Of a stretch of DNA of 11,198 bases, positions 1-11,198 are shown one piece after another. Under the pieces are notes generated by a model. The model was given only the letters and a program-made list of their open reading frames with translations, did no database searches and was not told the DNA's origin. Origin of the DNA: Promethearchaeota archaeon (GTDB lineage Archaea > Asgardarchaeota > Lokiarchaeia > Sigyniarchaeales > Promethearchaeaceae). Positions within the stretch are counted from its first letter, which is position 1. Each line of letters starts with the position of its first letter. The translations under genes and the position numbers were made by a program. The stretch is taken from assembly GCA_016933055.1 (NCBI GenBank), contig JAFGBS010000025.1, positions 1 through 11,198 of the forward strand. Direction: 5' to 3'.

Positions 1-24
1 ATTCTTTGGGAGAAGGGAGAAGAC

Positions 25-175
25 CGTACAGTACAAAGGAAAAAAAGGGAAAATTTTACCGATTAGCTTCGGTAAAAAAAGATTAATCCGCCAAAACGCG
101 TCCCGATTTTTGAGGGAATTGTGTAGATTTTTTGACTAGCATCATAGAGTGTTAGCGTTATCACCCGACAAATGA
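25..175 (+). repeat. Left degenerate terminal inverted repeat
   Basis: 60-112 aligns ungapped to the reverse complement of 11085-11137 at 42/53 identities. Further collinear matches: CGTACAGTA 25-33 = rc 11187-11195 (9/9); 144-160 vs rc 11050-11067 (14/18, one gap); GACAAATGA 167-175 = rc 11034-11042 (9/9). Confidence 0.85.
54..77. repeat. 9-6-9 perfect palindrome TTTTACCGA-ttagct-TCGGTAAAA inside the left terminal repeat
   Basis: Arms 54-62 and 69-77 are perfectly complementary. The arm core TTACCGA is the same as in the iteron copies at 360-368 and 368-376. Confidence 0.7.
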
Positions 176-266
176 GTAGTTTCCGCCCAATTCGATATTT
201 GTGGGCTTTTTAGATGAAATGTCGGTATTGTCCCGTGTTTTATCTAAGGCATCTTTGTGAAATCAA

Positions 267-566
267 AATTACCCGAAATTACCGGTGAAAGTAATTTCTA
301 CGCTAAGGAGAAGTCCCAAATACCTAAGAAGATGTTCAGTTGAGTAAGATGAAGTTAAAAATTACCGAATTACCGAAATTACCGCCAAAATCAAGTATTT
401 ATTTTACAATAATAATACTGTGTAATTAGATTTCTATAGGAACGAATGGTAATTTGGTAATTATTAGAGATTATAGATATTAGTAATCAGTAGATATTTA
501 GAATGGAGTAAAAGATTACTGTTCGATTGGTAATTCTATGGTAATTGATGGTAATTACTTACCATC
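267..566. promoter_or_regulatory. Iteron-like repeat array, candidate replication origin
   Basis: AATTACC starts at 267, 277, 360, 368 and 377; its inverse GGTAATT starts at 448, 456, 529, 540 and 550. The centre (~391-447) is AT-rich. Perfect 8-bp inverted pairs lie at 275-282/291-298 and 547-554/559-566. No ORF covers the region. Confidence 0.65.
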
Positions 567-601
567 TTCATAGTTACGCAGTGGGTTCAGTAAGTTTTCC
601 T

Positions 602-1051
602 CTATTCTTCTTTTAATTCCTTCATTCGTTTATTAATCAAATAACTCAATTCTTCCTATTCTTCAATTTTCTCGGATTTAATCTTTTGAGAAATCGAATT
701 TTTCGAGTCATTTATTAATGCAACACTAATTTGATTACTGACTTGAGTTTTGAATTCTTCTAATTTTTTATCAGCCAGAATATACGAGATTTTTCCATCT
801 CTGAGGAAGAACACACGGTCTGCTATAATTTTGAAATCAGGATCATGAGTTACAACGATGATGGTCATGGAAAGATGATCCTTGTGTAAGTCAGTAATCA
901 AGTTCAGAATTTTTTCTTTGTTTTCTGAATCCAATTCACCGGTAGGTTCATCAGATAATAAAACTTCTGGTTCTTTCACTGCAACTCGGATAAGTGCAAA
1001 TCTTTGTTGATCTCCACCTGAAAGTTGGTCTGGATAATGGTGCAAACGATT
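602..1051 (-). pseudogene. 5'-truncated ABC transporter ATP-binding protein (LolD/MacB-like), C-terminal half only
   Basis: It has the ABC signature LSGGDQQR, Walker B/D-loop VLLSDEPTGELD and H-loop VVTHD, but no Walker A or Q-loop. The frame is closed upstream by TGA after ESNRLINRL. After the TAG at 656-658 the same frame continues EELSYLINKRMKELKEE to a TAG at 602-604. Confidence 0.85.
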
Positions 1052-1080
1052 TATTAAACGATTGGATTCTCAAAAACAAG

Positions 1081-1084
1081 GGAG
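1081..1084 (+). promoter_or_regulatory. Shine-Dalgarno-like GGAG for ATG 1094
   Basis: GGAG lies 9 nt upstream of the ATG at 1094. Confidence 0.4.
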
Positions 1085-1093
1085 TACATAAAT

Positions 1094-1439
1094 ATGCTTA
1101 AATCAAAAATAACTCCTGATTTAATCAAAGAATTTCAAAGAGGAGGGAAAGCATATTTTTTTGACTGATTTAATAAATGAAGGATTTTGTGACAATATTA
1201 GTTCCGTATGGGTATATCCCTCATGTAGAACCGAAGAAGGCAATACGAAGGGGTGTGTGGTATGTTTCCATCCCCCGTCATCATTATTAGGCGAAATTAC
1301 GAACAAAGCAGTCCATGATAACGAGAAATTACGAGCCATAAATCGTGTCGGAAATCCCTCTATTACTTGGGAACCATTTCGACTATATATATCAGACTTA
1401 AACTCCTCAGAAGTATACTTGAAAATACATCAGTTCTAA
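1094..1439 (+). pseudogene. Small hypothetical gene (~114 aa) split by a frameshift in a T7 homopolymer
   Basis: ATG 1094 reads MLKSKITPDLIKEFQRGGKAYFFD*. Removing one T from the run at 1156-1162 fuses it to the called 1161-1439 ORF (…KAYFLTDLINEGFCDN…). No family recognised. Confidence 0.5.
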
Positions 1440-1584
1440 AGTTAGATATAAAAAATTGGCTGGATTATAATGCTTCGTTAACGTATTGGCTTTTTCACCA
1501 GCAGAATCTTAGGACTGAAGGCAGATTATAGAAAAAAGAAGTGTTTGTGGTCATACATTTATGCCTTTTTAAACAAATATTCAG

Positions 1585-1596
1585 AAAAAATGAAAA
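1585..1596 (-). terminator. Possible archaeal-type oligo-T terminator of the giant gene
   Basis: The minus strand reads TTTTCATTTTTT shortly after the stop codon at 1607-1609. Confidence 0.3.
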
Positions 1597-1606
1597 TTTT
1601 TTTATT

Positions 1607-4600
1607 TTAGTAGTCATCTCTTATTCGGTCTTGCCAATCAACTTCAGGATATTTTTTTAGATATTTCCATCGAACTGCATTTCCTAACGCATAGAAACCT
1701 CTATAAAAAGGTGTCAATCCTCCCAGTAATGCTGTGGCTACATATGCCATTCCTAAAGCAAATTCATCTCTGGAACAATAGAGAAAACCGGCACCCATCC
1801 AACCATACGGTAATCTACTAAGACTTATCCACATGAAACCGAATCCTCGTAATGAGAAACAATTACCCGATATTATCATCCAATTATACCACAAAGGATT
1901 AAGTATTCTTGAAAATTTCCCTTCAGACTCCAAGAAGAAATGATATATATTCAACAGTCTTAAAAATGTTCCGACCGAAAACTCGTGGAGTAAATTAACA
2001 TCACCATCAAACAAATTTCGATATCTTGCATTATATATCAACCCAATATTAGGTACACCTACAACCATAACAGCTGTCAATAAAGTGAAATACACTGAGG
2101 AATAGGTTTGCGGAACTTTATTTGGTGCTCTTAGATATCCACTAGCTTGTCCGTCTAAGAAGAAAGAGTCATCCATAGTATTATCTCTTCTACACTCGTA
2201 ACACACCAACGGAAAAATTTGTGCGTCTTTGCAATCAACTACACCGACATGGTTTCCACCATATCCCGCAGTCCATAGTGCAGATACTTCTAATGGTCGT
2301 AATATTTGCCATGAGTTCACCCACCATCCATAATCACGAGAGAATTCACTAGATCCGTGAGCTTCTACCCACATAGACACCAAATCGTTCTTATATATAA
2401 CTCCACCATACATGACATCTTGACAAGCGTCACGAATAATTTCTGTTATAATACTTTTAGTATAGGGTTCTGTAGTTCCCACAACATAGTAATTATCTAT
2501 AAATATCGAATTTGTAACCCCCGTTAGACCTTGGACGAACCAAGTATCACGATAGTGATTCCACATAAATTGTGGTTGTCCTAAACGATTCGCCATTGTT
2601 TCATAATCTGAATCTGCATATAATGAAATATGCCAATATCTCTCTTCATACGTTAATGATTGACTTATGGTTTGAGGATTAATTTGAATCGGTGTATAAA
2701 TTGCAGAATTATTATTACATGCAGTATATTCTGATTCTAACGATCCAAGTGTTGTATTATAGATACCCACAGTAATATAATAATAAGCTGTGGTGTTAAA
2801 TGCTTGAACCATTGTACTATTTTCAACCGTTGTTTCTATTGGTTTTAGACCGATCGTAGAATTTATAGGTGATTCACTTGAATATATACGATATACTAAT
2901 ACATTTTCGGACATATTATACCATGTATTACTAATAAATGTGCTATTCATATCGTTCCATGTAAAGTTTAACTTGCCGAAACATTGTTCATACGTTTCCC
3001 ATTCATAGGTCGCGTAGGTCCTGAGTCCATAAATTGCTGTATAATTATCTTCACCTGTAACATTTCCGGCATATCCTCTAATGCGTATTCTAAAATCATC
3101 CCAATCATCAAGACTGACGTTCCAATTTGATGTGTCTATGGTAAGATTGTGCCATGTTAAAGTGGTATTTCCGATACCGGAAATCAAATCGACGTATTCA
3201 TGCCACGTTTCACCGTCATATAACATACATTCTAAACTTCCGGTGTTGTTACCTTCCTTACCATAAACTTCTACCGTAATATTCATTATTGGGTATGTAG
3301 TGTTCAAATTGGTGTCAACATCTTGTAATTCGAACGTTTGTTCATCACCATCCGTGGTATCAGTATATATATATGTCGAATTGTCCAAAAATCCTACCTC
3401 ATTAATTGTCATATATTTATCCAATTCGCCGTAATACTCATATCCTACCTTAATTCTCACAGAATACACAAACACAGGATGAAAGTTTTTCTGTATCCAT
3501 AATTCAAAATAATCATCGAATTCATCAATTGTTTTATTTTGATCGAATTGATCGGTCCACTGACTATCTTCATTTGTTAATGTATATGATTCGCAAACAG
3601 TTTCACCTTCATCTCTTAGAAAATAATCCATGCTTGTGTCAAAATTTGATTTTGTCCCATGATCGTTGAATCGTATATATGGTGTAATTCTTGATGAGGT
3701 GATTCCATTTTCATATCCAATCCATGACATTGTGACATTCTTCACAATAGCAGATCCATTATTCAACCCTTGAATTTCATCAAAAGACAATTCAAGATAA
3801 CAAGAATCATACCAATACGGACTTGCATATTCATATATATAATCGGTTGTGTCATTCCAATCATCAATTACTGTATAATGTCCACTATTATTCGTGGCAC
3901 CGTTATTATAAATCCCATCATAAAAATCCCATTCTCGATTATATGATAGATAAGACATATACGAACTGGTTGGATACATCCATTCAGTTTCACCGGATAC
4001 CCATTCTTCACTTGTTACTGTTTTCCAATCAGTTGGAGTATCATAACTATAATCTATTTCAGAAACATATACCTCTGACAAATAACAAGTGTATCCGTCA
4101 TCTCTCGTAGATTCATATTGCACTAACAAATCATCATTGAAATCTTCAATCGTGAGTGATCCAAAATCCGCACTTGTAAATTCATAAGTTTTAGTGACAG
4201 AGGTTCCGGAAGCTCCTCCCATAATAGTTTTCCAATCAGTCCAAGATCCCCCTATATAAACTTTTAATCTCAAAGGATGATTCGCGCTATATATCGCAAA
4301 TTTCGTTGTTATTGTGAAACTATCAAGATCATAGGAAGAATCTATCGTGGAATTCTCAAAACTATATTCTTCAATACTAGCAACTGAACCAGAATTATCC
4401 ATTATGAACCCAGTTGATTGTGTCAAACTAGTATAATGATTAATTGAATCTCCTCCGTTTTGTAACACCCAATCATTCGGACTCGTATCTCCATCGACAT
4501 GATATAGCGTTGTATCAGTGCCACTTCCGGAATAGAATTCTTCACCAGATACATATTTATATCCCGTGTTTGTGACTCCTCTTAACACTTCATAATCGAT

Positions 4601-7369
4601 CTCCTCATATTGAAAATCTGTTACCTCTGGAAGACCAAAGTCTTTCAATATTGTTTCAGAATTTGAAATTAAAGACCATTTATTATTGAATTTGCATGTG
4701 ACTGCATAATGATAATATCCTTCCATTAAATTAAAAGTGTCAATATTATGAGCTATATCACCAAGATCATATACTTCTTCTGTCACTGGATCAAGCATTT
4801 CTGGTGTATATGAATCAATATAAATTTTATAATCACATCCGGTATAATCCGTAGTTATATATGTATGTGTGATTTGGTGATGATTTGTATCAACTATTAC
4901 ATTACTTGACAATATCTCATCATCGATATAAAACGAAGCATTATTTGTATATGTTGTAGAGTTGTAATATTCGAAATCGTATACCACAGTGAGTAGGTAC
5001 CATTGATTTTCATTAACACCGCTATTCAAAGTTGTATATCCGTGAGTATAATCGTACGACGTCCAATTATAGTTTTTTGTTCCAAATCCTAAAAGCTTCG
5101 TGGTACCATTATATATGTCTATAAAATTTTCAGTTGAATTATCCGTTGTCATAAACCAAGTTTGAACAAAAGAACGATTGGTTTCTATTGACTGATTCAC
5201 ATTCATTACCCAATTACCAGTATTCGAATTATCAAATATTTCATACACCTTTTTATGATCTTCGTGACTCGAAATCACTTTCTGAGTACCAGAAGTGCTA
5301 TTTATTATATCAAATTCTTCTGGTTTAGATCCTAATTCATCTCGATAAAATGTGTGGCGTCCTTTATAATTTCCGTAGTCAAATTCGTCAATAAATCCAG
5401 AATAAACATTACTAGTTGATTCTTCAAACATAAAAGCTTTATTTATATTGTCGACTGTTATATCCTCGCTATAAAGATAATATCTCCAAACTTCTGGTTG
5501 TTCATATTCGGTAATATCATCAACCACATAATAATGGTGAGTATTGTTTTCCCATGATATATCAATCGAATCGACATACGCGTGGTAATTATATCGTGAA
5601 GATCCAGAACGAACTCCGATTATGTTGATATTGGTGATTGAGTTTGCCAAATTATCTCCAGTTTCATATAGAGTATCATTAACATAGAAACTAACAGATT
5701 GATCGCTTTCAAATATGATTTTAAAAACATACCAGGTATTATCTGAAGGTGTTCCAATACCACTATGATATTCATATCCACTACTATCATAAGATCGGAA
5801 ATTCCCAGATTCCACACCAAATTCGGCTGCCAACGTGGTTCCATCTAATATACGAATATAGACCGCTTTATCATTATCTGGTACTATTCCCAACATTTCA
5901 ACAGTTCCGCTATCGGTTTCAATACAACCATGACTAGCTTGTACTGATCCACCAGAGGATGTGTCATATATATCCATTAGATTATTATGTCCATCATAAC
6001 TTGAAATAATACTTGTTGTCCCATACGTCTCGGTTTCATCCCAATCCGAAATTGAAGAATCAATTGTGTTATTCCAAAAGGTATATACTCCTTGATAATG
6101 CCCTCTTCCTTCTTCCCATTCAGCATCTATTTCTAAATCCATACCATCTTGTGTTAGTTCAATAATAGGTGCTGATAATGGATTGATAATAATTTCTATA
6201 CTCTCATAATTAGAAATCTCACTTGATCCCGTCCCGTTTACCGCTGTCACGGCATAATAATATGTATCATTCGATATTATTGTTTGATCTATATATTCAG
6301 TTTCTTCAGTTTCCCATATTTTTGTCGCTGAAGTAACACTGGTGATTTCTGAAAGACTTCTATATACCTTATAATAAGTGGCACCGTCCTCATCACTCCA
6401 ATTTAAAGATACTTCTCCCTCTACACCTGTTTCTTCAAGATCATCTAAGGTAGGAGGATCTGGTGGAAAATATTCGATATCATCGTCCGCTGGTACATAT
6501 ATTGAACTCCTTGGAATACTACTCTCGTCACTGTATTTGCTTAGAAGATTACCCATCTTCAGATCATAATCAGATTTTAAAGTATCCGCATTATTTACTT
6601 CTTCCCATGCTCTTTCAACACCCACAGTCTCATGTTCAGAAAACGTAGGATGAAAATCTATATATGTAGCATCAACTAATTTTCCCCCAAAATACAAAGC
6701 ATAAGGATCTGATTTTTTATCACCACTGTTTTTTAGATCATCTATTCCCATATTATATATTTCATACATTCTGATTTTATTATTAGCGTCACAAAACTCT
6801 AATACAGTATAGGTTAAACGTATTTCAATTGTCGCGCTCGTACCTCTAATAGAATCATAACATGATATATCGTAGTAAAACAGATCACCCGATTCAGTGA
6901 ATTTTCTTTCGCTAGACACTATAGGAATCACATACAATTGCCAACCATATCCGATAAAAACATCAAATTCAAACTCATTTAAACTATGTTGTCGCATATG
7001 TATTCGGATATCTGTTAAAGGTGATTTTCTATAATCCATATTTGCAAAATGTCTTAACATTTCGTGATTAGCTTTAGTCCCCTCATATAAAGATGGATTG
7101 TCCGACTCCCATATAATTTCACCATTAGGTCGATTAAGTGTTTCTGGTTCTCGAAACACATCAACATTTATTCTATTTTTATCACTTGAACCTCCAACAT
7201 AATGAAGAGTAACTTCTCCACTCTGAATTGATTGTGCCAAAAGCGATAATGTTTTTGTATCTGTTTTAACTGTAGTTGGTATAAAAAAAGTTAATACACC
7301 ACCAGTCGATAACAACATTATTCCTATGAAAAAAACCGAACTTATTTTCAGTTTTGTCTTATTTAACAT
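1607..7369 (-). CDS. 1920-aa secreted or surface glycoprotein: signal peptide/N-terminal TM, FN3-like domains, two concanavalin/LamG-like repeats, three further beta-sandwich repeats, C-terminal clan-CD-like cysteine peptidase and hydrophobic tail
   Basis: Uninterrupted 5763-bp frame with a basic then hydrophobic N-terminus. A canonical FN3 lies at aa ~302-393 (VSLNW…YYKVYRS…YYYAVTAVN…SEISN). There are about 36 N-x-S/T sequons. SMWVEAHGS (H1671) and AQIFPLVC (C1723) mark the peptidase. SD GAGGT is present upstream. Confidence 0.95.
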   Translation of the reverse strand: MLNKTKLKISSVFFIGIMLLSTGGVLTFFIPTTVKTDTKTLSLLAQSIQSGEVTLHYVGGSSDKNRINVDVFREPETLNRPNGEIIWESDNPSLYEGTKANHEMLRHFANMDYRKSPLTDIRIHMRQHSLNEFEFDVFIGYGWQLYVIPIVSSERKFTESGDLFYYDISCYDSIRGTSATIEIRLTYTVLEFCDANNKIRMYEIYNMGIDDLKNSGDKKSDPYALYFGGKLVDATYIDFHPTFSEHETVGVERAWEEVNNADTLKSDYDLKMGNLLSKYSDESSIPRSSIYVPADDDIEYFPPDPPTLDDLEETGVEGEVSLNWSDEDGATYYKVYRSLSEITSVTSATKIWETEETEYIDQTIISNDTYYYAVTAVNGTGSSEISNYESIEIIINPLSAPIIELTQDGMDLEIDAEWEEGRGHYQGVYTFWNNTIDSSISDWDETETYGTTSIISSYDGHNNLMDIYDTSSGGSVQASHGCIETDSGTVEMLGIVPDNDKAVYIRILDGTTLAAEFGVESGNFRSYDSSGYEYHSGIGTPSDNTWYVFKIIFESDQSVSFYVNDTLYETGDNLANSITNINIIGVRSGSSRYNYHAYVDSIDISWENNTHHYYVVDDITEYEQPEVWRYYLYSEDITVDNINKAFMFEESTSNVYSGFIDEFDYGNYKGRHTFYRDELGSKPEEFDIINSTSGTQKVISSHEDHKKVYEIFDNSNTGNWVMNVNQSIETNRSFVQTWFMTTDNSTENFIDIYNGTTKLLGFGTKNYNWTSYDYTHGYTTLNSGVNENQWYLLTVVYDFEYYNSTTYTNNASFYIDDEILSSNVIVDTNHHQITHTYITTDYTGCDYKIYIDSYTPEMLDPVTEEVYDLGDIAHNIDTFNLMEGYYHYAVTCKFNNKWSLISNSETILKDFGLPEVTDFQYEEIDYEVLRGVTNTGYKYVSGEEFYSGSGTDTTLYHVDGDTSPNDWVLQNGGDSINHYTSLTQSTGFIMDNSGSVASIEEYSFENSTIDSSYDLDSFTITTKFAIYSANHPLRLKVYIGGSWTDWKTIMGGASGTSVTKTYEFTSADFGSLTIEDFNDDLLVQYESTRDDGYTCYLSEVYVSEIDYSYDTPTDWKTVTSEEWVSGETEWMYPTSSYMSYLSYNREWDFYDGIYNNGATNNSGHYTVIDDWNDTTDYIYEYASPYWYDSCYLELSFDEIQGLNNGSAIVKNVTMSWIGYENGITSSRITPYIRFNDHGTKSNFDTSMDYFLRDEGETVCESYTLTNEDSQWTDQFDQNKTIDEFDDYFELWIQKNFHPVFVYSVRIKVGYEYYGELDKYMTINEVGFLDNSTYIYTDTTDGDEQTFELQDVDTNLNTTYPIMNITVEVYGKEGNNTGSLECMLYDGETWHEYVDLISGIGNTTLTWHNLTIDTSNWNVSLDDWDDFRIRIRGYAGNVTGEDNYTAIYGLRTYATYEWETYEQCFGKLNFTWNDMNSTFISNTWYNMSENVLVYRIYSSESPINSTIGLKPIETTVENSTMVQAFNTTAYYYITVGIYNTTLGSLESEYTACNNNSAIYTPIQINPQTISQSLTYEERYWHISLYADSDYETMANRLGQPQFMWNHYRDTWFVQGLTGVTNSIFIDNYYVVGTTEPYTKSIITEIIRDACQDVMYGGVIYKNDLVSMWVEAHGSSEFSRDYGWWVNSWQILRPLEVSALWTAGYGGNHVGVVDCKDAQIFPLVCYECRRDNTMDDSFFLDGQASGYLRAPNKVPQTYSSVYFTLLTAVMVVGVPNIGLIYNARYRNLFDGDVNLLHEFSVGTFLRLLNIYHFFLESEGKFSRILNPLWYNWMIISGNCFSLRGFGFMWISLSRLPYGWMGAGFLYCSRDEFALGMAYVATALLGGLTPFYRGFYALGNAVRWKYLKKYPEVDWQDRIRDDY

Positions 7370-7375
7370 TTTGTA

Positions 7376-7380
7376 ACCTC
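7376..7380 (-). promoter_or_regulatory. Shine-Dalgarno GAGGT of the giant gene
   Basis: The minus strand reads GAGGT-tacaaa-ATG (6-nt spacer). Confidence 0.6.
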
Positions 7381-7401
7381 ATTTTTTTTTACATACACTG
7401 T

Positions 7402-7469
7402 ATTTTGAGGAAACTGTATTCTTGGTAATCTTGATTTATTTCCCTCAAAATGTGAATGCATAATGCATT
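7402..7469. promoter_or_regulatory. Operator-like inverted repeats upstream of the giant gene
   Basis: ATTTTGAGG 7402-7410 pairs with CCTCAAAAT 7443-7451. AATGCA-taa-TGCATT lies at 7455-7469. Confidence 0.35.
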
Positions 7470-7764
7470 TCACTATTAAATATGAAAAAATAGAAAATTT
7501 ATTGTGATATATTGTGTCAAATATTGAGCCAAATTGAAATGGACAAAAATATGATTTTATTGTAAAATACCGACTAAAATCTTAATTCTCACATATGTTT
7601 CAAGTAACTTGATATGTAATGAAGCGTCCCATACTTATTTCCTCGATATATTTTTAATGAATTTAATTAGCCGTGAGATTTATTTCAATCATATTAAAAT
7701 CGATTCTTACTTAAGTGGGTAAGAATGTGTGACATTTCAAGAATATTTGTATCTCAGTACGAGA

Positions 7765-7770
7765 TTTAAA
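7765..7770 (+). promoter_or_regulatory. TATA-like box for a possibly leaderless transcript of ORF 7794
   Basis: TTTAAA lies at -29 to -24 relative to ATG 7794, the usual archaeal TATA spacing. The region is AT-rich, so chance is plausible. Confidence 0.3.
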
Positions 7771-7793
7771 TTGAAGTACTATTTAGTAAAATT

Positions 7794-8378
7794 ATGAGTT
7801 TTCATGTCATAAGAACCATCTTTTTTCCCACTGTTCGTTTCATTTTAGGCGTAAATACAACATCTAATAAATTCGGCCTTAAAAAGGCAGATTCGGAAAA
7901 CTGGGTAACATTGAAAGCAGAGTTTAACTTTCACGGTCCTAGACCAGGAGGGAGTTGGGTGTATCGACCCACTGCCGACATGGTTACGGAGATTGGGGAG
8001 TCTCCCGAGCAAGCCGAAGAACGGAGAAGAAGAATTTCATCATCTGTATTTAATAATAAATTAAATACAGAATATAAGACATTTGATGAATTGAAGGTCT
8101 GGTTTATCGATGAGGAGTTAAAGAATTTCATAAAGCGAGTAACAAGTAAGATATCCTTGGAATTTATAGGGGAGTTGTGGAAAGTGTGTGTGAATACGTG
8201 GGACGGTCTGGAATTAATTACGAGAAGAAATAGAGATGATCCCCGATTATACACCGGGGATATTCCCCACGATTATACACATGCACGAGAAGAGATTTGC
8301 ACTGTAATTCATAAGTTAGAACCAAAACTTAATCCATCGTGCATCCAATCACGCGTATCGGAATTATTATCTGATTAG
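7794..8378 (+). CDS. Hypothetical protein, 194 aa
   Basis: Long ORF for this AT content, ATG start, globular-like composition, not overlapped by a better gene. No motif recognised. Confidence 0.65.
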   Translation: MSFHVIRTIFFPTVRFILGVNTTSNKFGLKKADSENWVTLKAEFNFHGPRPGGSWVYRPTADMVTEIGESPEQAEERRRRISSSVFNNKLNTEYKTFDELKVWFIDEELKNFIKRVTSKISLEFIGELWKVCVNTWDGLELITRRNRDDPRLYTGDIPHDYTHAREEICTVIHKLEPKLNPSCIQSRVSELLSD

Positions 8379-8674
8379 CTCGCTCTCTCTTCTAGAAAAT
8401 CTGATCATTAACAGAATTTAAAAAATTATAATTAAAAATTGAACTTTATAAATTGAATTTGTCCAATTAAAAATCCTCCTATGAGAGAAAAAAGAGAAAT
8501 CATTAAGGCATGTGATTTTAGTTTCGCCCACAGATTTCCCACTCAACAATTCTGTTATTAAATACTTACTTGAGAAATTTAACTATTTTCCTATTCTGAG
8601 GATTATGGACAAATTTTCGATCTTCATCAGTACGCATCACCAGCTAAAAGAAGGAATGTAATAATATTATCCGA

Positions 8675-10411
8675 TCACAAAAAATGCTTTTTAGGGATTA
8701 GAATAGCGTTTTTTGTTATTCCATCTATGCTTATTTTATCTTGTGGTGTTTTTGGTATATCAGTCCACACTCTTTGAAGTTGCTTAATGAAATCGTTGAA
8801 TGATGGCTGGAGATTCAAACGTTTTTTTAGATCAATGTAATTATCACTTGTATATACTGCTGCATCATCGATGGATTTAACCATAGTTCTCGATTTATAC
8901 TTCTTTTTCACTTTGATTTCACTTTGGATCCAATAAGGTCGTTCGAGTCGATCGTTTGTTCTTCCTTCTCTGAGTTGCTCTATTAAGGTTGTCAACGTTT
9001 CCTCAAATCCCAATGTTAAAGATAGTTGGATAAGGTGTTTCAATCGAGAAATTGCTTGATCATCAAATAGTATTTTTCCAAATGCTTTTTTGGTTAATTC
9101 CGCACCGAACATGAAATACTTAAAGATCGTATCCCGACGAGGATCAGAAGGAAACGCATCTTCTTGAGAATTGAATAACGCAAGAACTTCCTTTTCTGTC
9201 CAGCCTTTGGTAAATTCAATTACACACTTACCCAAATATCCATAGGGAATACCCTTAATTTTCTGAAATCTTTTGGTATCAGTAGGTTGGGAGTCAAAGA
9301 GAAAATGAACTCCACGATCATTCATCCCTTGATCATTGAACATTTCAGGTCGTGTATTGCTTGTATATATAATTGGAGCAAGCCATTGTTCATCTTGAAG
9401 TAATTTCTGAGTTTTACTCAATTTTTGAACATTAACGTCATTCGTATGATAGGATTTCAATGTTCCCCACATACCTTTTGGGATATCATTCACGTCATCA
9501 ATTCCGATCGGCAATGTAGATACACTAACGTAATTATCAAATCGTGCTTCACTGCTAATATTCCTGCCAGTTACCGTGAAGCTATTCCATAAAGTTTTCA
9601 CCATAATTTCCATCATTTGGGTTTTACCAGAACCCGGGGGACCGATGAAACTTATCCATGGATTTAGAAAATTATGCTTTTTAAGTAAATGCAAGAAGGG
9701 TGAAGCGATAGCGACTCCAATAAATAGTTTCTTATTGGGAATTGTTATGGAATCCATTAGGAGATCGATGTATTTTGCTCCTTCAATTGAATCTACCGTT
9801 AATTCGTTCATCTCTTCAATTTGTTTTATATATTTTTCTTGAATGCTATCTTTTATTTTATCAAATACCTTCTCTGGAGGAAGATTCCATCCATTTTGTC
9901 CAAATCCGCAGATTGTTACTACATTTTCAGTGGGAATTTCTGCTTTATCAAGATATCGATGGATTAATACACTAAAATATCGAGGTTTTTCAATACAAGA
10001 GTGTTTTCTGACGTTTTCCTCCATTTCTTTGAATGTTTTACCTATATAAGAAATACCGTTCAACATATAATTGAGTAAGATCTCAAGATTTGGTCTGATA
10101 ATTTTTTTATTTATATTAAACGATTCCCAACCCCAGTAACGTTTCCCATCTTGATCATATATACCCGATTCAAGATTTAATTCAACATACCGAGATCTTT
10201 CTCTATTTGTATAGAAACGAACGTTAGTGCTTTTAAAAATCTGGTTAGAAATTACTAATTTAGAACGGAAATTTTTGACTCTAGCTTTTTTCTTGCTTTG
10301 TCCTGTAAAATGAGGAATTTCTTCGTTTCTGAAAATTTCATTCTCTTCTTTCGAGTAGGGATTAGAAACAGCTTTATTTTCTACTATTTATGGTGTGACC
10401 GCCGAATTCAT
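8675..10411 (-). CDS. DUF927/Cch-like (or D5/SF3-like) AAA+ replicative helicase; probable full frame starts at ATG 10411 with an in-frame TAA at 10388-10390
   Basis: Walker A ISFIGPPGSGKT, Walker B LPIGIDDV, sensor-I region QWLAPIIYTSN, Arg-finger GMNDR and a wHTH-like C-terminus. Manual translation shows the frame open from 10066 to 10387, and in frame with ATG 10411 beyond one TAA. Confidence 0.8.
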
Positions 10412-10433
10412 ATTGTTTTTGTAAATTTGTATT

Positions 10434-10625
10434 TCATAATGATCTAAAACATATAAGTCCTTCCTCCAAATACGATATTAATTTAAAATAATCGTTAGAC
10501 TTGGATCTCCGAAGATTTAGACTGTCATAACAATTGTCGCTGTTTAAATTAGAATGTCGGAATGTTTTTACGAGCAGTAGATTTATAAATTCCTGTACAT
10601 TATTAATAAATGAGTGATTCTTCAC
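10434..10625 (-). CDS. Small hypothetical protein, possibly a winged-helix DNA-binding protein or remnant
   Basis: GTG start. It is co-oriented with the helicase and ends 22 nt before ATG 10411. The C-terminal DSLNLRRSKSNDYFKLISYLEEGLI loosely resembles the wHTH recognition helix plus GLI. Confidence 0.3.
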   Translation of the reverse strand: MKNHSFINNVQEFINLLLVKTFRHSNLNSDNCYDSLNLRRSKSNDYFKLISYLEEGLICFRSL

Positions 10626-10863
10626 TTATTTAGGGTTGACCGCCCTTTGCTCCCTTAAACATGGGAGCGCCTAATTTTTCTAATTGTATTGTCCGTGTAA
10701 TCGTTATCACTTTTTGTTAGCACTTTTTCTTGGAAAATACTGTTATCAAAAGGGTACTGTGCGATGTTCGATGGATGAAGGTAAAAACAATTCCTATTCA
10801 CAACTATTTTTAACACGAAAACCTAAGGAAATCAGGGAAATCTCCAGCAGATGAAAGATGACA

Positions 10864-10905
10864 TAGTGAATTCACTAGTGAGTTCACTAGTGAACTCACT
10901 AGTGA
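10864..10905. repeat. 3.5 tandem copies of a 12-bp unit forming a 34-bp perfect palindrome
   Basis: Units TAGTGAATTCAC / TAGTGAGTTCAC / TAGTGAACTCAC / TAGTGA. 10872-10905 (TCACTAGTGAGTTCACTAGTGAACTCACTAGTGA) equals its own reverse complement. Confidence 0.95.
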
Positions 10906-11033
10906 TTACGATAAAGATATGTTGAAAGAAATAAGGTAAAAGTCCTGACAAATCATAAAAGGAAAACAACATTTGATCTGATAGCCCGATTATCCACCAA
11001 ATTTCCCCTATCATTACCCTTACCACTGCCCTA

Positions 11034-11195
11034 TCATTTGTCATAAATTTAACTGATAGCAGTCTATTTTTTGCTAAAATCAAGCAAGAAACGGGACGCG
11101 ATTTGGCGGTCTAATCTACATTTGCTGAACCTAATCGCTTTTTTTTTATTTTTTTTTCATACGACAGATGTATAAAGGGGTAACTATACTGTACG
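11034..11195 (-). repeat. Right degenerate terminal inverted repeat
   Basis: Reverse-complement counterpart of 25-175, with the same four collinear blocks and indels between them. Confidence 0.85.
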
Positions 11196-11198
11196 CGG

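Follow-up and report, generated by a model that had tools for sequence, protein, structure and literature searches.

What makes the two ends of an 11-kb contig from a Loki-type Asgard archaeon mirror each other? The window, i.e., the whole stretch of DNA analysed here, is the complete contig C34 (11,198 bp, positions 1-11198) of an assembly (G000) that comprises 36 contigs and 3.76 Mb at 35% G+C. A repeat search of the whole window shows that its longest inverted pair, by far, is the one joining its ends (about 39-112 versus 11085-11158; 74 nt, 74% complementary), in line with the inverted repeat from which this study started. Judged from sequence alone, this repeat had been taken for the termini of a window-spanning element carrying tandem transposase or recombinase sites or, alternatively, for two outward-facing copies of a miniature inverted-repeat element (MITE) with oligo-T tracts. 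The evidence presented below favors, with a probability of roughly 0.8, another arrangement: the two halves belong to a single MITE, hereafter E, which was split where the assembler broke the contig inside the repeat. The original observation is real, yet the pattern that it captured is composite and owes its form to an assembly break.

The inverted repeat joining the contig ends

Formal alignment bears out the repeat. When the first 300 nt were locally aligned to the reverse complement of the last 300 nt, the score was 53, compared with 19.4 ± 2.5 for dinucleotide shuffles (z 13.7), and none of 1000 shuffles scored as well. Identity over the 53-nt core (42/53) is 79%, exactly the figure claimed. 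The ~150 bp of collinear similarity said to surround this core proved too generous, as positions 111-300 and 10899-11086 align at chance level (z 0.6, with 271 of 1000 shuffles as good). Within the significant stretch, the part lying in the arms of E (1-87 versus 11112-11198; 33/47 identical) is weakly significant when taken by itself (z 3.1, 8/1000 shuffles as good), and the 25-nt flank lying outside E is strongly so (z 7.1, 0/1000). The end-to-end repeat is therefore a composite of two unrelated layers, namely the imperfect terminal inverted repeats (TIRs) of E and the two halves of a GC-rich palindrome located immediately outside them.

The internal periodicity attributed to each end was correct in part. 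The 20-nt spacing is present, with GATTA at 61-65 and 81-85 and TAATC at 11112-11116 and 11132-11136; the proposed 12-nt tandem sub-repeats are not, given that the letters that they have in common amount only to GATTA on the left or GATTAG on the right. Moreover, the second sub-repeat of each arm spans the border between E and an unrelated flank. The inner repeats CGTACAGTA (25-33) and TACTGTACG (11187-11195) were located as described, with A/T runs between them and the GATTA/TAATC motifs.

The orientation of the arms argues against a terminus role. Their tips (TA followed by ATC) adjoin the 11-kb body and their inner ends, which lead into the middle of the repeat, are cut off by the contig ends, so the ends of the window are not the termini of an 11-kb element. 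A genome-wide copy count, by which the sequence-only reading had itself proposed to judge this role, points the same way: the arms recur paired, 53 nt apart, in at least nine intact copies. They are true TIRs, only of the small element E. The alternative that had been offered thus survives in its identification of a MITE, and what falls away is the pair of outward-facing copies, as the two ends correspond to one copy (or to two identical ones) cut in half.

Element E and its insertion sites

E is a ~228-bp non-coding repeat, with units of 221-235 bp. An nhmmer search with a profile built from the nine intact units of G000 recovers ~13 copies in this genome, represented by the nine intact units, with arms 53 nt apart, plus eight halves. 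All eight halves lie at contig ends: the left and right ends of C34, the ends of C31, C24 and C36, and the starts of C15, C9 and C23. The congeneric metagenome-assembled genome (MAG) Promethearchaeota archaeon AMARA_1 (G001) carries three copies and one partial copy. Pairwise identity between copies ranges from 78 to 93% (median 86%); the halves on C34 are 100% identical to those of C31 and C15, and the other copies differ from them by 6-22%.

In the window, the left half of E occupies positions 1-83 on the minus strand (model positions 3-89 correspond to window 86-1), with its tip, ending in GAT, at 81-83. It contains a T7 tract (A7 at 74-80 on the plus strand), a small hairpin, ACCGAAGCTAATCGGT, at 58-73 on the minus strand, and the inner repeat at 25-33, and it is followed by the junction TA at 84-85, a presumed target-site duplication. 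The right half (11114-11198, likewise on the minus strand; model positions ~143-230 correspond to window 11198-11111) begins with its tip ATC immediately after the right junction TA (11112-11113) and comprises CTAATCG at 11131-11137, two T9 tracts within 11139-11157, a TATA-like TATAAA at 11171-11176 (TTTATA on the minus strand) and the inner repeat at 11187-11195. Read in alignment orientation, the left part of the element runs from TA through ATC, the T7 tract, ACCGAAGCTAATCGGT and a T-rich stretch to GTACTGTGCGG; an asymmetric middle of ~75 nt follows, and the right part consists of CCGCGTACAGTA, TTTATA, A8-A9 runs and CGATTAGGTTCAACAAATGTAGAT, after which comes TA. The tips read ATCT... 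and ...AGAT (TA, then ATCT... up to GAAGCTAATCG), and GAAsCTAATCG is found in both arms; the TIR match is weak but invariant across copies. The T tracts lie on opposite strands, T7 just inside the left tip on one and T8-T9 ~27 nt inside the right tip on the other. The inner TACTGTRCG repeat could also suggest a Tc1-like element nested in E, with outward-facing CAGTA tips; this reading was discarded, as both the divergence of the flanks and the empty sites described below place the borders of E at the outer tips, where TA meets ATC.

Two of the three intact copies in G001 have orthologous sites in G000 that are free of E. The flanks of the copy on G001 contig C136 align to an empty site on G000 contig C17 (299,662 / 299,659), and those of the copy on G001 contig C55 align to another on G000 contig C36 (about 88,285-88,421). 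The dinucleotides next to E are TA on both sides (TA/TA) in 10 of 13 copies and are degenerate in the three that have diverged most, i.e., in old copies. Being self-complementary, TA does not by itself separate a duplication from the last bases of the TIRs; the one copy that does, located in G001, has TC on both sides and favors a 2-bp duplication. Across copies, no reading frame is kept open. We infer that E was moved in trans by a cut-and-paste DDE transposase duplicating TA, in the style of the IS630/Tc1-mariner elements, an assignment drawn from the TA junctions alone.

A search for the corresponding transposase gave no match to DDE_3 (IS630) or to Transposase_1/mariner-type domains in G000, which is 91% complete, and no match to DDE_3 in G001. 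The only transposase found in G000 is a broken IS4/5-type fragment on contig C8. IS630-type (DDE_3) genes occur in 4 of 13 relatives of the family. One of these relatives, the closed genome G011, holds an IS630-type element of 1349 bp in two 99%-identical copies (loci C1:3346988-3350419 and 1232617-1236048). The ends of this element begin TAGAG... and TAGAAC... and are unrelated to the arms of E, and it does not match as an autonomous partner.

Among the 41 genomes of the family and order that were searched, E was found only in this genus and in none of the 39 other relatives. Likewise, exact-pattern scans for its arms returned no match in the JGI metagenome contigs or in IMG/VR, and the same kind of scan with the left arm over species-representative genomes matched AMARA_1 alone. 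Shorter matches, of ~50 nt and to the left arm only, occur directly behind a stop codon at G000:C22:104908-104961 and G001:C28:694-743. These solo matches carry the T7 tract, ACCGAAGCTAA[T/A]CGGT and an A-run, and they may be truncated copies of E or, conversely, native gene-end sequence from which the arm arose.

The tracts on both strands and the conserved TATA-like TTTATA of the right half raise the question of whether the copies of E could represent a dispersed family of small structured RNA genes, single or in pairs with oligo-U terminators. In agreement with this idea, the predicted fold of one copy is more stable than those of its shuffles for one strand (z -3.0); on the other strand, the excess is not significant (z -1.9). 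However, a consensus fold of 11 copies contains no compensatory change in any of its 33 predicted pairs and has an unfavorable covariation term, and this absence of covariation indicates that the single-copy stability merely reflects the palindromic body expected of a MITE. An Rfam 15 search (E-value mode) of the window and three copies gave no match for E; a hammerhead match elsewhere in that search was dismissed as a chance hit. As the pattern of presence and absence and the TA junctions fit DNA transposition, an RNA gene is scarcely credible here. E behaves as a MITE in its empty sites, its TA junctions, its lack of a conserved reading frame and of covariation, and its position at gene ends; it is an ordinary kind of element in a little-studied host.

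This position at gene ends is pronounced. Counting genes of at least 80 codons that read towards E, the stop codon of a converging gene lies between -1 and 32 nt from the tip of E at 10 of the 15 left junctions and at 8 of the 13 on the right. In three cases, the stop codon consists of the junction TA and the first A of E. Because E starts with A and ends with T beside TA, a stop codon whose TA receives the element is restored as TAA, whichever strand it lies on. In archaeal transcription, oligo-T tracts serve as termination signals. It is thus plausible that the copies that survive are those at TA sites located at or just behind the stops of converging genes, where the terminal A of E would restore the TAA stop of the neighboring gene and the T7-T9 tracts, present on both strands, could terminate incoming transcripts in the manner of archaeal oligo-T terminators. 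Such copies would be tolerated if the neighboring proteins are not extended and their terminators are not removed. The flanks of E copies show a further regularity, e.g., at G000:C17:785230-785540: converging genes often end a few bases apart or share TTAA, and an A-run in the last codons of one gene faces a T-run of the other. The oligo-T terminator of each converging gene seems to lie within the lysine-rich tail of the other.

The assembly break and the body of the contig

The contig ends at which E is halved carry the signature of the assembler. In BLAST searches, the first 87 nt of the window and the reverse complement of its last 87 nt each occur ~12 times in the genome. The left 87 nt are 100% identical to the end of C31 and 88-94% identical to other copies, and the right 87 nt are 100% identical to the start of C15. 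Exact terminal overlaps of 87 nt occur in at least 12 pairs of contig ends in G000; therefore, 87 is the k-mer of the assembly graph. Around E, this graph takes a simple form in which C34 and C31 run into the same left-arm 87-mer, and C34 and C15 leave the same right-arm 87-mer. Both halves on C34 lie on the minus strand, with their outer tips adjoining the unique 11 kb. Only two layouts agree with this topology, a circle that contains E once or a segment flanked on each side by E in direct orientation (C31-E-C34-E-C15). The terminus of C31 contains an MFS transporter gene reading into E, and C15 begins with E followed by a converging gene of 222 aa, so that C31-E-C15 has the appearance of a regular chromosomal site of E, with genes converging on it.

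Read depth is compatible with both layouts. In the source run, the k-mer depth of the C34 body is 16.7, compared with 18.2 for a 65-kb chromosomal contig, which fits an integrated element and a single-copy circle alike, and the ~2x depth of the E pieces fits two identical copies of E per genome in either arrangement. The flanks of E on C31 and C15 were sought in G001 and not found there, and synteny could therefore not order the contigs. Logan contigs of the source run also break inside E; two apparent end joints among them were set aside, as their sides measure only 20-25 nt and derive from other E copies. Two metatranscriptome runs of the source study yielded no pieces of the contig.

Exact end overlaps of 87 nt (some of 72 or 61 nt) are likewise shared by C5/C27, C7/C15/C36, C9/C18, C12/C13/C25, C18/C35, C19/C20/C30, C21/C32 and C24/C9; the 61-nt overlap between the end of C24 and the start of C9 lies inside one copy of E. 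Much of the G000 assembly graph could be re-joined through such sharing. For users of this MAG, C34 should be regarded as a contig without transposon ends, and the breaks at C31/C15/C34, C24/C9 and C36/C23 as closable via E. In a second, unrelated study (labelled hot springs metagenome, 2017), one third of the sampled words of the contig were found, in pieces at least 99% identical across the body, so the identical element or organism is present in that second sample.

The body itself contains one gene recognizable as a replication gene. The ORF at 8675-10066 on the minus strand encodes 463 aa and is a putative helicase of primase-helicase (SF3/DUF927-like) type, an assignment that draws on a P-loop match and a predicted structure. 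The match to the Pfam family RNA_helicase reaches 17.2 bits, below its 21.5 cut-off, and falls on the P-loop; the Atlas model of the protein aligns over ~400 residues, with TM scores of 0.64-0.72 by query, to the helicase halves of phage and plasmid primase-helicases and to DUF927 proteins. Among 154 genomes of the order, 11 contain relatives of the helicase, some of which lie within closed chromosomes, and one relative, a 605-aa neighbor of the same non-coding module in G001, is 29% identical (E 7e-51). No match was found in IMG/VR, and a word-indexed protein search returned only the protein itself.

Half of the contig is taken up by its main cargo, an orphan ORF of 1920 aa (1607-7369, minus strand), for which searches of Pfam, PHROGs, NCBIfam and the Atlas gave no match and the PDB only a marginal FN3-like one. 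The G001 element has ORFs of 173 and 957 aa, which show no homology to the 194-aa and 1920-aa ORFs of C34; the 957-aa ORF occupies the same place in its element as the non-homologous 1920-aa ORF does in C34. Near the left end, positions 426-1051 on the minus strand are 88% identical to G001 contig C27 (1501-2126) and comprise the 3' fragment of an ABC ATPase gene (ORF 656-1045) together with the region downstream of it, which contains GGTAATT repeats within the same 88%-identical stretch. The fragment corresponds to the last 129 codons of a gene that is whole (323 aa) on C27 of G001 and has no other copy in G000. Since the stretch from about 426 onward is, in G001, ordinary sequence behind a chromosomal ABC gene, the right part of the AATTACC/GGTAATT repeats at 267-566 is less likely to be an origin.

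At the right end, a non-coding module of ~420 bp (10691-11111) with a sharp left boundary is ~93% identical to G001 contig C51 (6449-6848) and directly adjoins E in both genomes. No reading frame of the module is favored by tblastx, and Rfam returned nothing. The module contains 12-nt tandem repeats, with 3.5 copies in C34 (10864-10905) and 1.5 in G001, as well as several TATCA/TGATA words. Its ~93% identity is found between elements whose adjacent helicases are 29% identical. It may represent an origin or a regulatory unit that has been exchanged, or else an RNA gene that escaped recognition. A helicase, orphan cargo and a gene fragment together give the C34 body the look of a mobile element or variable island.

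The second layer of the end-to-end repeat belongs to this body. One half of the palindrome, at 86-112, reads ATCCGCCAAAACGCGTCCCG followed by a T5 tract, lies outside E and is complementary to the other half, CGGGACGCGATTTGGCGGTC, at 11085-11111, which is kept beside the same copy of E on contig C51 of G001. Its 18-mer occurs only at two sites in the window (in the 86-112 half and at 11092-11109) and once in G001, and none of the other E copies has this sequence beside it. The 20-mers at 86-105 and 11092-11111 are 65% G+C, compared with 34% for the contig. With one TA between them, the halves fold into a 9+8-bp hairpin that contains one mismatch and closes on the 6-nt loop TCTAAT; an A-rich tract precedes this hairpin and T5 follows it, and its folding energy of -34.4 kcal/mol lies far below that of shuffles (-11.0 ± 2.6; z -9). 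The most economical history would be that the C34 body was originally a circle whose palindrome took up E at its loop TA. In 154 genomes of the order, matches to a palindrome half with two mismatches stay at the control level; six matches in IMG/VR, all in GC-rich phage contigs without the partner half, were attributed to chance.

The same 20-mers could also be taken for the TIRs of a transposon corresponding to the whole 11-kb body, with GATTA as transposase binding sites, inasmuch as one matches the reverse complement of the other at 17/20 positions, both have TA next to them and their G+C content is conspicuous. Nevertheless, such a transposon would have to be inserted exactly between tandem copies of E, or else two same-orientation insertions of E would have to have occurred at its tips. 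No transposase is recognized on the contig, and the motif has no further copies beyond chance in either genome or in 152 relatives. Given that the joined halves form a hairpin with a 6-nt loop, which a circle explains in a single event, we consider an 11-kb transposon very unlikely.

On G001 contig C51, half of the palindrome is joined to E at the same base as in C34, and this shared junction between E and its flank implies that the insertion beside the palindrome is old. The far side of E in G001 is not the palindrome partner: E connects the helicase homologue and the module to ~1.3 kb of unrelated DNA, beyond which lies a chromosomal segment syntenic with G000 contig C2. This arrangement would reflect either integration of the element by way of E or a chimeric contig joined at the repeat.

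These observations bear on whether E acts as a recombination or attachment site for the helicase-encoding element, through homologous exchange between E copies or through an unrecognized site-specific recombinase. Several features are as expected from such a role: the complete identity of the C34 halves to those of C31 and C15 against the 6-22% divergence of other copies, a graph with two paths in and two out, as for an element found integrated and excised, flanks on C31 and C15 that resemble an ordinary chromosomal site, a body depth of about one copy per chromosome, and, in G001, both the linkage of a related element through E to DNA that becomes syntenic with C2 ~1.3 kb further on and the missing palindrome partner. 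Still, no integrase or recombinase is recognizable on C34, the G001 junction may be an assembly chimera at the repeat, and the identity of the terminal 87-mers is partly forced by the way in which the assembler cuts contigs. As E also spreads alone to sites that hold no DNA of the element, a MITE is needed in any case, and we regard an attachment site as quite unlikely to be the explanation of the locus. A broader proposal, in which E serves as a portable site of homology or attachment, so that the orphan helicase element enters at any of ~12 MITEs and the MITE family travels on it, is rather doubtful; if such entry does occur, C34 would be an element integrated into, or excising from, the chromosome with an identical MITE at either side.

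Comparison with known systems

MITEs that duplicate TA are known to derive from IS630/Tc1-mariner elements, e.g., SM1 of Sulfolobus with ISC1048 and the Correia elements of Neisseria. To our knowledge, MITEs and plasmid-like elements of Asgard archaea have barely been described, and a full-text literature search for miniature inverted-repeat elements in these archaea returned no relevant paper. A MITE and an assembly break are ordinary on their own, and the use of the present result is mainly practical, for this MAG. For cataloguing the Asgard mobilome, it adds a MITE that targets TA, re-forms stop codons and supplies converging genes with oligo-T tracts, i.e., predicted terminators, an 11-kb element with a putative primase-helicase-type helicase and a 1920-aa orphan protein, and a 420-bp non-coding module that retains 93% identity despite the 29% identity of the helicases.

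E resembles the MITEs of the IS630/Tc1-mariner group in being small (~228 bp), non-coding and dispersed (~13 copies), in its imperfect TIRs with TA on both sides and its palindromic body, and in residing in short intergenic gaps at gene ends. Unlike them, it has no autonomous partner sharing its ends in G000, in G001 or in the IS630-type element of G011, its arms are only ~70% alike, and its host is an Asgard archaeon.

If identical repeats do bracket an element with its own replication helicase, C34 would be comparable to the Hfr-type co-integration of plasmids mediated by insertion sequences (IS) or MITEs, and the related element in G001 is likewise bounded by E. The likeness has a limit, as a free circle together with a separate chromosomal copy of E explains the assembly of C34 equally well. 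The junction that remains once E is removed finds its parallel in the hairpin terminators and cruciform palindromes of plasmids. Oligo-T suffices for archaeal termination, and the palindrome may serve as a terminator, as an origin element or as neither. Although no gene visibly ends at the C34 palindrome, the E-less junction shares with bidirectional hairpin terminators and cruciform-forming plasmid palindromes a GC-rich stem of 9+8 bp, which an A-rich tract precedes and a T-rich tract follows.
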